DNA from: an uncultured Burkholderiaceae bacterium
GTDB lineage: Bacteria > Pseudomonadota > Gammaproteobacteria > Burkholderiales > Burkholderiaceae_F
DNA length: 40,000 nt
Reading direction: 5' to 3'
Assembly (NCBI GenBank): GCA_944390675.1
Contig: CALXQR010000003.1
Span: forward strand, 123,896 to 163,895
In this document: in pieces, positions 10,495-36,374 of the stretch
Layout: the number at the start of each line of letters is the position of its first letter
How positions within the stretch are numbered: the first letter of the stretch is position 1
Made by a program: the position numbers and the translations under genes
The notes under the pieces: model-generated
Database searches by the model: none
What the model was told of the DNA's origin: nothing
Seen by the model: only the letters and a program-made list of their open reading frames with translations

Positions 10495-10527
10495 TACTAT
10501 GCACAGACCTTTTGAGGGAGTTTTTTG

Positions 10528-10872
10528 ATGAGATTGAAGTGGGTACGCCAAAAATTGCAACGCTGGGCAGCCTGGCTCGAAGGACGCGGAAACATCAAAG
10601 GCATCCAGCTCTCTCAGGTCGGCGGGGGATCCGGATCCGGTAAAGATGCCGGAGTCAAAATTGATGAGGATTCGCTCTTGGTTGATCAAGTGGTCAGAGA
10701 ACTCGAAAATGATCACCAGGAGATCATCCGGATGGTTTACTGCGAGACGCCCGGGGGAGATCTGAATCGAGTGGCAGAAAAGATGGTATTAAATCGGAGT
10801 AGCGTCTATAGAAGGATTTTCGAAGCAGAAAAGGAGTTTGCCATCCAATATGATGAAAAAATAGGCAACTAA
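10528..10872 (+). CDS. Q-like late-gene antiterminator (phage 21/82/933W Q-type pattern)
   Basis: LQRWAAWL near the N-terminus resembles LERWGAWA of 933W-type Q. The C-terminal part DEDSLLVDQVVRELENDHQEIIRMVYCE...LNRVAEKMVLNRSSVYRRIFEAEKEF parallels the Q C-terminal HTH-like region. GAGGGAG RBS before ATG 10528. Recognition by eye only. Confidence 0.5.
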   Translation: MRLKWVRQKLQRWAAWLEGRGNIKGIQLSQVGGGSGSGKDAGVKIDEDSLLVDQVVRELENDHQEIIRMVYCETPGGDLNRVAEKMVLNRSSVYRRIFEAEKEFAIQYDEKIGN

Positions 10873-30400: not shown

Positions 30401-31110
30401 TGAAAACGATCAAGGATGTACTGCTTGAGGATTTGCTGCCTGAAAGTCTGACGCATGATCAGCAAATGGCTACAGCGGCTGCAGCGGTGGATCCTCAGTT
30501 AAGAGCAGTTGCCGGCGTCGTGGATGTGGTTGCGATCTACGCGCACATTGATGAGTTGACGAGCGAGCAGCTCGATCACTTTGCGGTTGGCCGCAATCTC
30601 ACGACGTGGCGCGAATCGTGGCCGTTGGATCTAAAACGCTCGGTTGCGAAATCCATTATTGCTCAAAAGGCAAGAATGGGCACGTTGTCGGCCGTTAAGA
30701 ATGTGCTGGCCTCTTTGGGATCTGCCGTCTCCATTGTTGAGTGGTGGCAGGAAAGCCCAAAAGCGGCTGCGCATACATTCAAAATCACAGCGACGTTAGG
30801 CGACATTGAGGGGACGCTCACCGAGCAAATGCAAGAGGATTTTTTCCTGCTGCTTGATGCCTCAAAGCCGGTGAGATCTCACTACACCTTCACGCTCAGC
30901 CAAAACGTCAAAGGAGGGATTCAAGTCGGAGGTGCGGCAAGCACAGCAAGTTTTGCAAGGGCGTCAGGGCAACGAAAGCCATGGCGTTTGGGCATTCAGA
31001 TCGGGCCGATTATCCGGCCCGTTTCTGTAAGTGCTTTTCAGGTCGGCCGCAAGGCCGTTTTTTGTCACATGCGACTGGCAAACGTTTTGCGCGTGGTGAC
31101 AGTCGCGTAA
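30400..31110 (+). CDS. Tail protein gpI-like
   Basis: LLPESLTHDQQMA...ARMGTLSAVKNVLASLGSAVSIVEWWQESPKAAAHTFKI parallels P2 gpI ...HKGTIGAIRRVVEPLGYLINVTEWWENSDPPGTFRL. Confidence 0.8.
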   Translation: MKTIKDVLLEDLLPESLTHDQQMATAAAAVDPQLRAVAGVVDVVAIYAHIDELTSEQLDHFAVGRNLTTWRESWPLDLKRSVAKSIIAQKARMGTLSAVKNVLASLGSAVSIVEWWQESPKAAAHTFKITATLGDIEGTLTEQMQEDFFLLLDASKPVRSHYTFTLSQNVKGGIQVGGAASTASFARASGQRKPWRLGIQIGPIIRPVSVSAFQVGRKAVFCHMRLANVLRVVTVA

Positions 31111-31123
31111 TAAGGAGCTTTTA

Positions 31124-32887
31124 ATGGCTTACGTTTTAACCATCACTGATGCAGGCCTCGCCGCGTTGGTGAATGCCCAAAAGAACGGGACAACACCCGT
31201 GATTTTTGAAACGGTACAGTTCGGCACTGGGAAATATACGCCGACAGGGCAGGAAACTGCGCTGCAGGCGTCGTTCAAAACCCTGGACACGATTCAAGGC
31301 GGTGCGGTTGGAGACAATATCATTCATGTGACTGTTTCTGACTTTTCTGCAGAGGCCTATACGGTTTATGAGGCCGGTATCTTTACTGACGATGGTGTGC
31401 TTTTTGCTGTGATCAGTCAAGATACGCCGTTGGCCCAGAAGGCCGCCGGCTCTCAACTTTTGATGTCCTTTGATCTGGTGCTCGAGCAAGCCGGAGAAAC
31501 AGACATCGAGTTGGGTAACACGAACTTTTTCAATCCTCCGGCCACAACGACAACAGCCGGCATTGTCCGGATGGCCACGGCAGCAGAGGTAGAGGCTGGT
31601 CTTTTGTCTGGTGTTGCTGTCTCGCCAGCCGGGCTTAAAGCCAAACTTGAAAAACCCGGGAGCCTCAACGGCAGTGCTTTCCAGGACGGGTCGATCGGCT
31701 TAGGCAAGCTTTCCGAAAAGCCGGTAAGCACCGCCGAGCAAACACTGACGCCGCAAGAGCAGCAGCAGGCTCGAGAAAACATGGGCTTGACAGAGGCTGG
31801 CACGACGCAGCTCATCATTGCTTCGTCGCCTCGTTGGTACAAGCGGCCGAATTTGCCGACGGTGGCCAAAACGTCCGTAACGATTCCCGCCAATACGCAG
31901 GTCAACATTGGCAACGCGGGCTACATCAGCACAACGGATACCACGCTGCAGCTAAGCACTGTGGGAGAGGCGGCCGCTCGAGCGGGCAAGGATGTATACA
32001 TCTACGCCTGCAAGCCGACATCTGGATCCGAACCGGTGTTTGTGCTTTCTCTCAACAGTACAGTGCCGACCGGATATAACGCTCAAAACTCTCGGAAAAT
32101 CGGCGGATTCCATTGCTTGTGCGCCTCTGTTGGCACGATTTCGGGGCATACGTTGAGCGGCTATGCAGCCGGCGACATCTTGCCTTTGTCCGTTTGGGAT
32201 CTGCTGCACCGGCCGGTGAGCGAGCCGGAGGGCATGGTTTGGATTGAGGGATTGGGCATTTGGGTCGATATTTATCTCGGGTCTTACAACGGCAGCAAGC
32301 TTGTGAGCGCCTACGGAGCATTGACTGCTGACGGCTCTTCGAGTCCCGCTTTCCACGGTGAGAAGTTCGCTGAGTATGCAGGATTGGTCGGCAAGCGTTT
32401 GGTTCGTCGCGATGAGTTCATTGTGTTTGCAAAGGGCTCAAACGAGGAAACAAGCATTTCCGGAGGTGTGGATCCAAATACGACCGGCGGACACGTGGAT
32501 ACGGCTGGCCGCAGAATGATTTCGAACTATGGTATTGAGGACTGCTGCGGGGCGTTGTGGCAATGGACTTCAGATGTTTTTGATTCCTGGGATGGTCACA
32601 GCGCGACTTGGCGAACAGAGTCCAATTCCGAAACGTATACCGAGGGCGAGATGCGTTACTACCTCGATGGCTATTCGTGGAAAAAGGAGAGCGTATTTAA
32701 TCCCGCTTTCGATTCCACTGGGCACGGCTCTTGCATCGGTTTGCTGCGTCGCGGCCTTGTTGGGGCGTTCTGGGGCGACGGGTCGCTTTGCGGTTCTCGC
32801 TCGGCGGTTCTGTACTACTTTTCGTCTCGCGGCTGGGCTTATAACGGGTGCCGGCTTTCGTCCGAGCCACGGGTCGTAAACCTCTAA
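31124..32887 (+). CDS. Tail fibre / receptor-binding protein, DGR target (gpH-like N-terminus, variable C-terminus)
   Basis: The N-terminus VLTITDAGLAALVNAQKNGTTPVIFETVQFGTGKYTP...YEAGIFTDDGVLFAV parallels the P2 gpH N-terminus. The last ~50 codons are the VR. WQWT and ...GFWGDGS.CGSRS....GCR features resemble Mtd/FGE-type CLec variable domains. Confidence 0.85.
   Translation: MAYVLTITDAGLAALVNAQKNGTTPVIFETVQFGTGKYTPTGQETALQASFKTLDTIQGGAVGDNIIHVTVSDFSAEAYTVYEAGIFTDDGVLFAVISQDTPLAQKAAGSQLLMSFDLVLEQAGETDIELGNTNFFNPPATTTTAGIVRMATAAEVEAGLLSGVAVSPAGLKAKLEKPGSLNGSAFQDGSIGLGKLSEKPVSTAEQTLTPQEQQQARENMGLTEAGTTQLIIASSPRWYKRPNLPTVAKTSVTIPANTQVNIGNAGYISTTDTTLQLSTVGEAAARAGKDVYIYACKPTSGSEPVFVLSLNSTVPTGYNAQNSRKIGGFHCLCASVGTISGHTLSGYAAGDILPLSVWDLLHRPVSEPEGMVWIEGLGIWVDIYLGSYNGSKLVSAYGALTADGSSSPAFHGEKFAEYAGLVGKRLVRRDEFIVFAKGSNEETSISGGVDPNTTGGHVDTAGRRMISNYGIEDCCGALWQWTSDVFDSWDGHSATWRTESNSETYTEGEMRYYLDGYSWKKESVFNPAFDSTGHGSCIGLLRRGLVGAFWGDGSLCGSRSAVLYYFSSRGWAYNGCRLSSEPRVVNL
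32730..32865 (+). repeat. DGR variable repeat (VR)
   Basis: Gap-free alignment to 33050-33185 (offset 320). There are 20 mismatches, 19 of them opposite TR adenines. Confidence 0.9.
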
Positions 32888-32989
32888 CCGGAGGGCCGAG
32901 GAGGTCGCGGTCTGCAAACCGCAAGTCGGAAAGTAATGCCGGCGAAGCCGGCCGCGCAATTTTTTAAGGAGGGCTTTAACAAAAGGGTA

Positions 32990-33019
32990 TTGCCATCAGC
33001 GCCCCCCCCCATCTAAAAT
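32990..33019 (+). promoter_or_regulatory. Candidate promoter for the TR-RT transcript, with a C9 tract in the spacer
   Basis: TTGCCA (32990-32995), 18-nt spacer containing CCCCCCCCC (33002-33010), then TAAAAT (33014-33019). TR begins about 30 nt downstream. Confidence 0.45.
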
Positions 33020-33049
33020 GCCTTACGGCTGAAAGATCTCCAGTGAAGG

Positions 33050-33185
33050 CTTGCATCAGTTTGCTGCGTCGCAGCCATGTTGGGGCGAACTGGGGCAACA
33101 GGTCGAATTGCGGTTCTCGCACGGCGAATCTGAACAACTTTTCGTCTAACAGCTGGGCGAATAACAGGTGCCGGCTTTCGTCCGA
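33050..33185 (+). repeat. DGR template repeat (TR)
   Basis: 136 nt with 27 adenines, concentrated in AAC/AAT/AGC codons when read in the fibre frame. Noncoding in its own context; the track ORF start at 33168 is spurious. Confidence 0.9.
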
Positions 33186-33311
33186 TACGCAGAGTACAGG
33201 CTTTGCCTAATCCCGCGGCTGGATCTTTTGGCCTTCTCGAAAGGGAAAACACACAAAGGGAATGAGGTGCGGCTAGTAGCAATAAGCGAACGTCGTGCCT
33301 CATACATTTCA

Positions 33312-34337
33312 ATGAAAAGACATGGACATCTTTGGGACAAGCTCGTGGATCCTGAAAATCTGCGGCTTGCGATCAAGAATGCCTCAAGGGGGAAGCGCTG
33401 GCAGCGCAAAGTTAAAAAAGTGCTTGCCAGGGAGGATGAGTGTGTGCAGGAATTGCACAACATGCTCATCAGCGGCCAATACCATACAGCAAAGTACAAA
33501 ACAAAGGTCATATACGAACCCAAGCAGCGCACAATCTTCATTTTGCCGTTTTATCCGGATCGAATAGTGCACCATGCCATCATGCAAGTGTTGGAGCCCA
33601 TTTGGGATGGGCTTTTGATCTCCGATTCCTACGCTTGTCGAATTGGCAAAGGTCAGCACGCCGGATCTCGGCGGTGCATGCAATGGACAAGGCAATTTAA
33701 GTATTGCTTGAAATGTGATGTGAGCAAGTTTTATCCCTCGCTCGATCATGAGGTCCTCAGAAAAATCATTCGTAAGAAACTCAAGGATCCGTTCCTTTTG
33801 AATCTTTTGGATGAGATTATCGGCAGTGTGCCAAATGGCAAAAATGTACCGATTGGAAATTACTTGAGCCAATGGTTTGGCAATATCTACCTCAATGAGC
33901 TTGACACCTTTATTAAGCAAGAAAAGCGAATCAAGCCCTATTTGCGCTATTGCGATGATTTCGTCATTTTTTCAAACGACAAAAGCGAGCTTCATGCGCT
34001 TGCCGGTGAAATCAAAGATTTCCTTGGCAGCAAGTTGCTCTTGCGTTTGAGCAAGTGTGAAGTTTTTCCGGTAACTCAGGGAATTGATTTTCTTGGATAT
34101 CGTCATTTTCCGCAAGGTTACATTCTGGTGAGGAAATCGACGGCCAAGCGAGTCAAAAAACGGATGTCGGTTGTATTGCATGAATTGGAGTCAGGCAGGC
34201 TGACGGTTGAGAGAGCGACCGCGAAAGTGGCCAGCACCGAAGGGTGGCTTAAACATGCCAACACGAGGCATTTCAGTTTGTCATTAAAACTGGCAGAGAT
34301 CAAAAAGGAGATAGCAAATCATGAAAAAGTTCAGTGA
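33312..34337 (+). CDS. DGR reverse transcriptase
   Basis: MKRHGHLWDKLVDPENLRLAIKNASRGKR N-terminus, SYACRIGKGQHAG, DVSKFYPSLDH, the DGR-specific IGNYLSQWFGNIYLNELD, the catalytic RYCDDFVIF, and GIDFLGYR. Confidence 0.9.
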   Translation: MKRHGHLWDKLVDPENLRLAIKNASRGKRWQRKVKKVLAREDECVQELHNMLISGQYHTAKYKTKVIYEPKQRTIFILPFYPDRIVHHAIMQVLEPIWDGLLISDSYACRIGKGQHAGSRRCMQWTRQFKYCLKCDVSKFYPSLDHEVLRKIIRKKLKDPFLLNLLDEIIGSVPNGKNVPIGNYLSQWFGNIYLNELDTFIKQEKRIKPYLRYCDDFVIFSNDKSELHALAGEIKDFLGSKLLLRLSKCEVFPVTQGIDFLGYRHFPQGYILVRKSTAKRVKKRMSVVLHELESGRLTVERATAKVASTEGWLKHANTRHFSLSLKLAEIKKEIANHEKVQ

Positions 34338-34605
34338 CTTTGCGGATGAGCAAGGGCTCGTTGGAGAAAAAATGCCCGTCGCTGAGGTTTTCAATAAAAC
34401 CATTGTCGTGACCGGTTTTCGCGTCATCGACTCTAAAGCAGTCAAGGGCAAACGCTGCCTGCAGCTGCAGTTTGAACTGGACGGCGAAAAGCATGTGCTT
34501 TTCAGTACCAGCGAAGTGCTGTTGCGGCAAACCGAAAAATATGCCGAGCATATTCCGTTTGAAACGGTTATTAAAAAGGTCGGCAGTTATCACACATTTA
34601 CTTAG
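34321..34605 (+). CDS. Hypothetical protein (94 aa) translationally coupled to the RT
   Basis: The ATG overlaps the RT 3' end by 17 nt. No family recognised, and it is not Avd-like by eye. Confidence 0.6.
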   Translation: MKKFSDFADEQGLVGEKMPVAEVFNKTIVVTGFRVIDSKAVKGKRCLQLQFELDGEKHVLFSTSEVLLRQTEKYAEHIPFETVIKKVGSYHTFT

Positions 34606-34614
34606 GTGATCAAA

Positions 34615-34926
34615 ATGCAAGGTTTTCCGAAAACTTTAAACACCCGCGAGGATTATGAATATGTCCGTTTGAATTTTGCAAAAGAGCTCTGGGCTCCTGA
34701 GTTTCAGGCTCTTTTGGATTCGAATTACGGATGGTTTTTCGTCAAGGAATTGGGCGAGGATGAACCTGGCGTGACCGATGACACGCATAAGGTTGAAGAG
34801 CAGCACGACACGTCCGGCGATGCCGAAAAAGTGGTGCGCTATCAGTTTGAATATCGAGAGGTTGAAAACAGCAAACTCAAGCGCTTGGGATATAGCGTTT
34901 CAGAGGTGCAAACATTGCTTCAATAA
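34615..34926 (+). CDS. Hypothetical acidic protein (103 aa), last gene of the DGR unit
   Basis: AGGTGA RBS before ATG 34615. Followed by a strong terminator. No family recognised. Confidence 0.6.
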   Translation: MQGFPKTLNTREDYEYVRLNFAKELWAPEFQALLDSNYGWFFVKELGEDEPGVTDDTHKVEEQHDTSGDAEKVVRYQFEYREVENSKLKRLGYSVSEVQTLLQ

Positions 34927-34948
34927 AGTTTTCGGAGAGCAATAAGAA

Positions 34949-34972
34949 ACCCGCCAGCGTGCGGGTTTTTTA
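34949..34972 (+). terminator. Rho-independent terminator closing the fibre/DGR unit
   Basis: ACCCGC-cagcgt-GCGGGT followed by TTTTTT. Confidence 0.7.
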
Positions 34973-34995
34973 TTGCCTCCGATCAGGAGAAAACA

Positions 34996-35460
34996 ATGTT
35001 GACAACGATTTTGCCTCAGGGCGCAGAAAGATCTCTCATGATTTTAGGTGGCACCGTGGGCGGATTTTTAAGTTTTGCATTCGGAGATATAGGCCCGCTT
35101 TTTATGTGGCTGATTATTTTCGTATGCATCGATTTTATTACAGGGACATTGGCCTCTATTGTCCGGGGGACCTGGACCAGCAAGCAGTGCGGTATCGGAG
35201 TCATCAAAAAGGTTCTGTACTTCTGCATTGTGGCCTTGGCTCACGGGCTTGATGTCGTTTTTAGTTCGCTCATTCATGTTGAGATTTTGCAATCGATTGT
35301 TATCTGCGCCTACGCGGCTGGGGAAGTCGGCAGCATCTTGGAAAACATTGAGGCTTGTGGATTTGGCAGCGTCATTCCGTCCGGCATTCGTCGATTGATC
35401 AAAGCGCTTAATGAACGGGTTGAAAACGCTGTGGATGATTTTGAGGGAGGAAAAAAATGA
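34996..35460 (+). CDS. Holin (Phage_holin_4_1 / TcdE-like family)
   Basis: WLIIFVCIDFITGTLASIVRGTWTSKQCGIGVIKKVLYFCIVALAHGLD matches the family pattern. Several TM helices; lies directly upstream of the lysozyme gene. Confidence 0.75.
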   Translation: MLTTILPQGAERSLMILGGTVGGFLSFAFGDIGPLFMWLIIFVCIDFITGTLASIVRGTWTSKQCGIGVIKKVLYFCIVALAHGLDVVFSSLIHVEILQSIVICAYAAGEVGSILENIEACGFGSVIPSGIRRLIKALNERVENAVDDFEGGKK

Positions 35461-35912
35461 AAGCGGACAGTTTTGGTGCGTTTCAGCCGGCAATCGCTGC
35501 AGATTTTGTGGCGCAGTTTGAAGGCTTGAGACTTAAGACTTATCGATGCCCTGCTGGGGTTTTAACGATCGGCTATGGGCATACCGGTCCCGATGTGACG
35601 GAGGATCTTGAAATTACCGAACAGAGAGCCAAGGTGCTTCTTTGTGAGGATCTTGCAAAACATGCGCAAGCCCTTTCCCGGTACGTCAATATTCCAATTA
35701 ACGCCAATCAGTTCATTGCGCTGCTTTCCTTGGCGTTCAATGTCGGCGTGCATGCCGTGGCCAGTTCAACTCTCTTGCGACTGATCAACACGGGGCGCAT
35801 CCAGGAGGCTGCAGACCAGTTTCTGCGCTGGAATAAGTCCGGCGGCAAGGTGCTCGATGGCCTGACTCGCCGGCGCGAAGCAGAAAAGGAGTTGTTTTTA
35901 AAAGATGAGTAA
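35457..35912 (+). CDS. Endolysin, GH24 lysozyme
   Basis: FEGLRLKTYRCPAGVLTIGYGHTG and NQFIALLSLAFNVG motifs. ATGA overlap with the holin gene. Confidence 0.85.
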   Translation: MKADSFGAFQPAIAADFVAQFEGLRLKTYRCPAGVLTIGYGHTGPDVTEDLEITEQRAKVLLCEDLAKHAQALSRYVNIPINANQFIALLSLAFNVGVHAVASSTLLRLINTGRIQEAADQFLRWNKSGGKVLDGLTRRREAEKELFLKDE

Positions 35913-36342
35913 GTACCTTTACGCGATCTGCGCTCTGGCTGGGTTTGTCTTGGGGTGGTTCGTTACTTCGTCTGGGTATAAGGCGGAAATCGCGGACATG
36001 GAAAGAGAAAATGCTCGAGCCGTTGAAAAGTTAGTGGAGTCACACAATGAAAAACTGGAAAACGAAAGTCGGGTACTGGCTCAAGCTATTAGCGAGCGTG
36101 ATGCTGAGATTGATCGTGCTCGCCGGCTTGAGCTTGATCTTGCTCGTTATGCTCAGCGGTTGCGCGACGCGCAGCGTGCCAGTAGAGTGCCCGCAGCCAA
36201 CACCGATTCCGGCCAGTCTGGTAAGCGATCAGACGACCGCTGTGGAGAGTTGCTTGTCCGACTTTCGGAAAGCGGTTCAGGATGCTGCGTATTACTTGGA
36301 AAGCTTAACACGGACCGGAACGCAGTAAGAAAGCTGCAGTGA
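35905..36342 (+). CDS. i-spanin (Rz-like)
   Basis: N-terminal TM helix YLYAICALAGFVLGWFV followed by a charged coiled region. Located after the endolysin gene. Confidence 0.7.
   Translation: MSKYLYAICALAGFVLGWFVTSSGYKAEIADMERENARAVEKLVESHNEKLENESRVLAQAISERDAEIDRARRLELDLARYAQRLRDAQRASRVPAANTDSGQSGKRSDDRCGELLVRLSESGSGCCVLLGKLNTDRNAVRKLQ
36101..36328 (+). CDS. o-spanin (Rz1-like lipoprotein) embedded in the +1 frame of the i-spanin gene
   Basis: MLRLIVLAGLSLILLVMLSGC has the lipobox L-S-G-C, followed by a Pro-rich mature part (CPQPTPIP). The gene lies entirely within 35905-36342. Confidence 0.65.
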   Translation: MLRLIVLAGLSLILLVMLSGCATRSVPVECPQPTPIPASLVSDQTTAVESCLSDFRKAVQDAAYYLESLTRTGTQ

Positions 36343-36347
36343 ATTTT

Positions 36348-36374
36348 GCCCGGGCGCGCCCCGGGCTTTTTTTT
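36348..36374. terminator. Bidirectional terminator between the lysis cassette and int
   Basis: GCCCGGG-cgcgc-CCCGGGC followed by TTTTTTTT. Confidence 0.75.

Follow-up and report, generated by a model that had tools for sequence, protein, structure and literature searches.

The window analysed here (the whole 40,000-nt stretch of DNA) carries a DGR that is preceded by a run of nine C residues lying between two sigma-70-like hexamers, which raises the question of what drives this DGR and whether its activity can be switched. Judging by comparison with related loci, the 30-bp element is most likely a promoter that drives the DGR RNA and the reverse transcriptase (RT) and is phase-variable, or a rheostat, through strand slippage. 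For the full mechanism, in which the element would be a dedicated sigma-70-type promoter of a self-contained DGR unit with an activity dependent on tract length, we estimate a probability of roughly 60%.

The DGR resides in a P2-like Sutterella prophage from the human gut, with genes for a CI-type repressor, terminase, tail proteins, Baseplate_J, Tail_P2_I, an Mtd-like fibre, holin, lysozyme, an Rz-like spanin and integrase. The nearest genome records, two gut MAGs named 'uncultured Sutterella sp.', have the prophage on 207- and 247-kb contigs; their identity to the window is 95% and 90% over 11.7 kb. A search of phage GenBank records with positions 31000-35000 of the window and a scan of IMG/VR for the 5' anchor of TR gave no match, and the fibre protein encoded in the window had no exact record when replicates with the same VR were sought. 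On one related contig (L011:4685-5491) holin and lysozyme are called as one 268-aa fusion ORF, probably through a frameshift or an assembly difference. The fibre gene comes after the Baseplate_J and Tail_P2_I genes and contains VR; the poly-C element is located between this gene and TR-RT. The parts of the DGR are:

31124-32887, + strand: DGR target gene encoding an Mtd-like tail fibre of 587 aa (Pfam mtd_2nd, 1.3e-25; Phage_tail_fib)
32730-32865, + strand: VR, a 136-nt repeat that aligns with TR and closes the 3' part of the fibre gene
33050-33185, + strand: TR, a 136-nt repeat
33312-34337, + strand: DGR reverse transcriptase, 341 aa (RVT_1, 5.8e-15; phrog_1423, 1.4e-113)
34321-34605, + strand: orf94, overlapping the RT stop, with no family match
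34615-34926, + strand: orf103, the second conserved small ORF of the unit

The DGR is genuine: the TR/VR mismatches are A-specific, RT is situated beside TR, and VR occupies the 3' end of an Mtd-like gene. Nineteen of the 20 internal VR/TR mismatches fall at TR adenines, of which TR has 27. The remaining one, at index 109 (VR 32839, TR 33159), has G in TR and T in VR beside a mutated adenine, and represents a rare substitution outside adenines or else a point mutation that arose later. The C-terminus of the fibre gives a weak Pfam match to FGE-sulfatase/CLec. The RT gene begins 127 nt past TR, and RT has more than 5000 homologues. Among relatives VR is distinct in 23 of the 24 locus groups in which it can be read, and TR is near-invariant. 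When near-identical copies whose fetched DNA covers VR were compared, 14-17 of their 18-24 substitutions lay within the 136-nt VR. Since most substitutions between such copies fall in VR, the DGR is active in nature.

Both small ORFs are kept 3' of RT in all relatives, including one with an RT only 65% identical. Neither had a family or PDB match in Pfam, PHROGs, NCBIfam and PDB sequence searches, and a single-sequence AF2 model of orf94 is beta-rich, but its confidence is low (pLDDT 55) and does not allow a fold search. They may be candidate novel DGR accessory proteins. No Avd or four-helix-bundle family was matched by orf94, orf103 or 10 other small ORFs. DGRs without Avd exist, so a missing Avd does not exclude DGR membership.

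The promoter-like element itself (window 32987-33022) reads gtaTTGCCAtcagcgCCCCCCCCCatcTAAAATgcc and can be divided as follows:

32990-32995, + strand: -35 hexamer TTGCCA, matching 5/6 consensus positions
32996-33013, + strand: 18-nt spacer, TCAGCG + C9 + ATC
33002-33010, + strand: poly-C tract, C9 in the window, making up 9 of the 18 spacer bases
33014-33019, + strand: -10 hexamer TAAAAT, matching 5/6 consensus positions
33025-33027, + strand: predicted transcription start, 6-8 nt past the -10 hexamer

A sigma-70 consensus scan of the 30-36 kb region gave the element a score of 10/12, the top of three matches and the sole one on the + strand. Our own scan of the 40 kb on both strands, with spacers of 16-19 nt, returned it as the sole match scoring at least 10/12, mononucleotide shuffles giving 6.6 +/- 2.6. 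The C9 run is likewise the sole G or C run of at least 7 in the 40-kb window, and 35% of shuffles hold a G/C run of at least 9. Taken alone, the sigma-70 match or the C run is unremarkable, and each could be due to chance; what is notable is that the window's sole example of each feature shares one 30-bp stretch, 24 nt 5' of TR. Between the fibre gene and the holin gene it is also the sole promoter-like site that the consensus scan finds on the + strand. Thus, the sequence and its scan score confirm what the first-pass annotation had described, a C9 run inside the spacer of a near-consensus promoter 5' of TR, and the start that it placed at about 33026, some 25 nt upstream of TR, agrees with a predicted start 24 nt from TR.

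Related loci were retrieved by exact-protein look-ups (RT, its cluster members and orf94) and by genome and metagenome scans. This gave 32 tract-bearing loci from independent assemblies (ENA, Logan, NCBI); together with the window, the 33 loci represent 27 lineages with distinct VR. Tract lengths were read from consensus assemblies, some at low coverage (3.6-14x). The expectation voiced in the first-pass annotation, that tract length should differ among related genomes, was borne out: the tract is not invariant but ranges from C7 to C14, being C7 in one of the 27 lineages, C8 in two, C9 in 13, C10 in eight, C11 in two and C14 in one. It is pure, with no interruption, in all 33 loci. The near-identical cluster (at least 99.6% identity to the window over 4.25 kb) has C9 in four loci, C10 in five and C11 in one strain, and the tract is the sole indel over 4.5-7 kb, save one further indel in L017. 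Further strain clusters are also variable (C9/C9/C14, C8/C10, C9/C10 and C10/C9), so that nearly all clusters contain more than one length; because several separate clusters vary, tract changes are recurrent, which would be compatible with reversible switching in a clonal population.

Could these differences be homopolymer sequencing or assembly errors, the tract being really fixed? Homopolymers are error-prone, coverage of some contigs is as low as noted above, and one Logan contig (L090), which starts at the first base past the poly-C tract, breaks exactly there. However, the C7-C14 range goes beyond errors of +/-1, and 33 assemblies, made by several pipelines, contain the tract. Assemblies with the same VR have the same tract length in two groups of three (L016/L017/L092 all C10; L102/L103/L104 all C9), which argues against random assembly noise. 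A control T8 run in the same loci (36367-36374, between the spanin and the convergent integrase genes) has no indel among copies at least 99.6% identical; indels do appear in it among haplotypes 90-97% identical. We regard the artefact explanation as highly improbable.

Short-read assemblies are broken by both the DGR repeats and the tract. The stretch L019:1-520, for instance, is an assembly chimera with the VR of the fibre gene fused directly to TR, the VR/TR repeat having collapsed. We also weighed whether contig breaks near VR could stand in for heterogeneity and rejected this, because the VR/TR repeat breaks assemblies by itself.

A scan of JGI metagenomes with RT returned only relatives of at most 59% identity, which have no G/C run 5' of TR, with the exception of L031, a member of the tract family. 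The tract is also absent from relatives whose RT is 65% (L093-95) or 64% (L096) identical. Its absence at RT identities of 65% and below confines it to the lineage whose RT identity is 80% or more; it is no general DGR feature.

A separate observation concerns low-GC human-gut phage contigs with a DGR RT 57-58% identical (L042; also L021, L022, L024 and L028). They carry an intergenic G8 run and a poly-C run (L042:4765-4772 and L042:5816-5825), the latter being C10 in L042 and C7 in the others, roughly 60-125 nt 5' of the start codons (ATG) of small paralogous genes with a common leader, 'gcaggtaaaga...cactaactgataaYcctATG'. This may be another case of a length-variable tract in a phage with a DGR, unrelated to the first.

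The sequences flanking the tract fall into five haplotypes:

Haplotype A: TTGCCA-TCAGCG-Cn-ATC-TAAAAT
Haplotype B: TTGCCT-TCGGCA-Cn-ATC-TAAAAT
Haplotype C: TTGCCA-GGGCGA-Cn-ATC-TAAAAT
Haplotype D (L089, RT 87%): CTGCACTTGACA + 16-nt insertion - C11-GTC-TAAAAT
Haplotype E (RT 80%): TTGCAA-TTGACG-C8-TGTC-TAAAAT

The -10 hexamer TAAAAT is invariant in all 33 loci and all five haplotypes, and the -35 hexamer, with the common core TTGC, is kept in four (A, B, C and E). The six spacer bases 5' of the tract are scrambled (TCAGCG, TCGGCA, GGGCGA, TTGACG), and the 7 nt past the -10 hexamer are essentially randomised (GCCTTAC, GATTTTG, GCCTTTT, AATCATT, TTCATAC). A pure tract amid neighbouring bases saturated with changes implies selection for the repeat itself. 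The pattern is the footprint to be expected of a promoter with the repeat itself under selection; haplotype D is the exception. There (L089:100-150), a 16-nt insertion, AATTTAGAGGTATGTG, separates the -35-like region from C11; this region holds a perfect TTGACA, now about 30 nt from the -10 hexamer, and what lies upstream has no relation to the fibre gene. Either the promoter has been rearranged or inactivated here, or regulation is organised differently; the haplotype suggests that the C-run and the -10 hexamer can persist without a spaced -35.

The haplotypes also bear on a translational frame switch, in which a small ORF would run from TTG 32990 through the tract. With C9 the frame reads TTG CCA TCA GCG (CCC)3 ATC TAA, its stop falling inside the -10 hexamer; with C10 it enters TR in the VR frame and stays open to TAA 33208-33210, which would yield a TR-encoded peptide; and an AAGGAGG sequence is located upstream at 32967-32973. 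Yet about 16 nt separate this Shine-Dalgarno-like motif from the TTG, haplotypes D and E lack it, haplotype E has an early stop at every tract length, and TR is open in that frame simply as a copy of VR. Lacking conservation in haplotypes D and E, the small-ORF switch was rejected, and we give it next to no weight.

Conserved RNA structure begins close to the predicted start. RNAalifold, applied to six haplotypes and the relative with RT 65% identical, gives a long-range helix that encloses the whole of TR, and single-sequence MFE folding gives the same TR-enclosing helix (z = -2.8):

33027-33044, + strand: 5' arm of the helix, pairing with 33218-33233
33218-33233, + strand: 3' arm of the helix, at the start of the TR-RT spacer RNA (RNAalifold and MFE)
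33258-33310, + strand: spacer-region hairpin of the DGR RNA, with compensatory changes

The two arms have matching insertions in L031 (one A added in the 5' arm, one T in the 3' arm), and the 65% relative L093 forms an equivalent TR-enclosing helix from an entirely different sequence. Within this family of DGR RNAs, the helix seems to be a conserved element of the architecture. The changes in the spacer-region hairpin are AU<->GC exchanges, with a full swap in L093. Two Rfam models, RT-14 (28.9 bits, gathering 48.1) and Phage_DGR (22.4 bits, gathering 50), match at full length and below threshold at 33175-33304.

The base of the helix at 33027 lies 8 nt past the -10 hexamer, within the expected sigma-70 start zone of 33025-33027. 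The conserved helix structure starts just 3' of the C-run and the -10 hexamer; upstream of it, conservation is confined to the hexamers and the tract. This boundary is relevant to an explanation in which the element is no promoter and TR-RT is transcribed from the late operon only. The C-run and TAAAAT would then have another role in DNA or RNA, such as that of a protein-binding site, or of a processing site, where the DGR RNA has its 5' edge. Haplotype D, which keeps C11-GTC-TAAAAT without a correctly spaced -35, speaks for such a site, and so does L093, where the TR-enclosing helix begins only 3 nt past TAAACA and the RNA must therefore start further upstream. On the other side, four of the five haplotypes have a -35 at a compatible distance, the element is the sole strong sigma-70 match in 40 kb, and the conserved RNA structure excludes both the C-run and the -10. 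Besides, we know of no DGR step that employs a poly-C element. We consider a non-promoter function quite unlikely.

Returning to the promoter reading, we looked at where its transcript would end and what could enter it from upstream. Two terminator-like structures delimit the cassette:

32938-32965, + strand: hairpin GCCGGC-GAA-GCCGGC with T6 7 nt later, an imperfect terminator-like structure in the interval between the fibre gene and the promoter
34947-34971, + strand: strong intrinsic terminator, a fold followed by T6, before the holin gene (34996)

The downstream structure folds stably (34940-34975, -20 kcal/mol, z = -7.3), and the predicted transcription unit would comprise the promoter, TR, the spacer RNA, RT, orf94, orf103 and this terminator. 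The upstream hairpin is kept in haplotypes A, B, C and E and folds at -11.2 kcal/mol with a z of only -0.85; a fold of the whole interval 32866-32990 gave no significant structure (z = +0.5). Termination there would be weak, given the 7-nt gap before the T-run. The DGR cassette is co-directional with the late gene cluster, the lysis genes (34996-36342) have no + strand promoter-like site of their own in the consensus scan, and an ORF at 10525-10872 weakly resembles the phage antiterminator Q (21.5 bits, below the cutoff of 26), which, if real, could carry late transcription past the terminators on both sides of the DGR unit. With a weak upstream terminator, co-directional late genes and a Q-like ORF, late read-through could supply TR-RT RNA regardless of the tract. 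Control by the element may therefore be on/off mainly in the prophage state (lysogens), or act as a rheostat.

According to the mechanism that we favour, slipped-strand mispairing at replication would add or remove C residues in the -35/-10 spacer, giving spacers of 16 nt with C7, 17 with C8, 18 with C9, 19 with C10, 20 with C11 and 23 with C14; the first-pass annotation was correct in its arithmetic for C8 and C10. Spacer length would set the contact of RNA polymerase with both hexamers. The sigma-70 spacer optimum is 17 +/- 1 nt, and promoters are sensitive to 1-bp changes in the spacer. Lineages with C8, and less so those with C7 or C9, would make DGR RNA and RT and keep rewriting the tip of the tail fibre, whereas lineages with C10 or more would make little of either and retain their current fibre. 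The state of the tract would be inherited and reversible. Locked tract alleles (CCCTCCCC variants) would give 17-nt and 19-nt spacers. We infer that the element is an active promoter, that its activity changes with the length of the tract, as expected from the established effect of spacer length on sigma-70 promoters and from the opc and porA precedents, and that tract length affects the frequency of homing. The proposal of a phase-variable promoter is supported by length variation, tract purity, the hexamers and the helix at the predicted start, as far as sequence comparison goes.

The distribution of alleles fits this mechanism in part. Among the 26 lineages that keep the -35, spacers are 16 nt (1), 17 (2), 18 (13), 19 (8), 20 (1) and 23 nt (1), so that about 60% (16/26) have 16-18 nt and 40% have at least 19 nt. 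Such a mix is of the kind expected of a contingency locus, though its peak is at 18-19 and not at 17 nt. Spacers of 18 and 19 nt, off the optimal 17, account for 21 of the 26 lineages; with the commonest alleles off the optimum, either the unit is usually weakly expressed or the optimum model is off. A further counter-point is haplotype D, which keeps C11 despite its displaced -35.

Another explanation also accepts a real promoter with a hypermutable tract and does without an adaptive switch: the tract would be a tolerated hot spot or a crude rheostat, the promoter would work at 16-19 nt, and expression would mostly be late read-through. The clustering of alleles at C9-C10 (21 of 27 lineages) could be a mutational equilibrium, and the weak upstream terminator and possible Q-like antiterminator agree with read-through. 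In the consensus contigs, lineages have a diversified VR whatever their tract length, as this explanation would have it; with VR diversified in all lineages, such contigs cannot correlate tract length with DGR activity. Against it, the tract stays pure although the bases beside it are saturated with changes between haplotypes, which implies that the repeat itself is selected, and sigma-70 promoters respond to 1-bp differences in spacing. In opc of Neisseria meningitidis, the difference between 11 C and 12 C is enough to alter expression (PMC3447861). We judge a tract without a switching role to be rather unlikely.

As a phase-variable promoter, the element would resemble several known systems. 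The opc promoter is a direct precedent; like porA and fetA, it has a poly-C or poly-G run of about 8-14 inside a sigma-70 spacer. In porA and fetA of Neisseria meningitidis the homopolymer lies in the -35/-10 spacer and slippage changes expression stepwise. Comparable features of the present element are a run of at least 7 between the hexamers (haplotypes A, B, C and E) and a length that is polymorphic with fixed flanks in the near-identical cluster. The Neisseria tracts control single bacterial surface proteins, whereas here the target would be a prophage retroelement (template RNA and RT), and instead of a phenotype as such, the switch would set how fast another locus mutates.

In Bordetella fim2 and fim3, a variable poly-C just 5' of the -10, between the activator site and the -10, sets the on/off state. 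The position of the tract just 5' of the -10 is shared, and Sutterella belongs to the same order, Burkholderiales. The fim promoters differ in depending on the BvgA activator in place of a canonical -35; haplotype D, without a spaced -35, would fit the fim type better.

The DGR of Bordetella phage BPP-1 (mtd-avd-TR-brt) is likewise that of a temperate phage with an Mtd-type fibre, a C-terminal VR, adenine mutagenesis and TR beside RT, and what it shares with the present one extends to the second Mtd domain, A-specific mismatches and a structured TR-RT spacer RNA. In contrast to BPP-1, no Avd is recognisable here upstream of TR or elsewhere, and two unrelated small ORFs are found 3' of RT. To our knowledge, a TR promoter-like site of its own with a hypermutable tract has not been reported for BPP-1. 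Phasevarions offer another parallel: there, a simple-sequence repeat, usually within coding sequence, switches a DNA methyltransferase with epigenetic effects at other loci. In both cases a repeat would switch a 'master' activity that acts at other loci, but the effect here would be targeted hypermutation and not epigenetic regulation.

A literature search on DGRs with phase variation, homopolymer promoters, slipped-strand mispairing, start sites and Sutterella, which covered few subscription-journal papers, found no prior description; the first-pass annotation, to whose author no such DGR control was known, thus agrees with this non-exhaustive search. Homopolymer tracts are known in phage genes, for example in Campylobacter phages, and not upstream of a DGR. 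What would be new is the combination of a phase-variable promoter type with a DGR, each already known separately. A 2024 preprint on DGRs of gut Bacteroides found that activity tracks the levels of avd/TR/rt transcripts and stated that regulatory mechanisms 'await discovery'. The element is a candidate answer, readable from sequence, to this acknowledged question of DGR regulation. The element is widespread in human gut metagenomes (the collection's index lists the orf94 protein in 356 blocks), and the existence of natural C7-C14 alleles makes the hypothesis testable on public reads and with simple reporters.

The locus joins two classic generators of diversity, slipped-strand phase variation and mutagenic retrohoming. 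We see about an even chance that a contingency locus here gates a targeted hypermutator, dividing a clonal Sutterella prophage population into heritable and reversible 'diversifying' and 'frozen' tail-fibre sub-lineages, which would be the first regulation to be described for a natural DGR. If this is true, the phage lineage could alternate between exploring new receptors and holding on to a successful one without any sensory regulator, and the tract would exert a stochastic, second-order control of evolvability.
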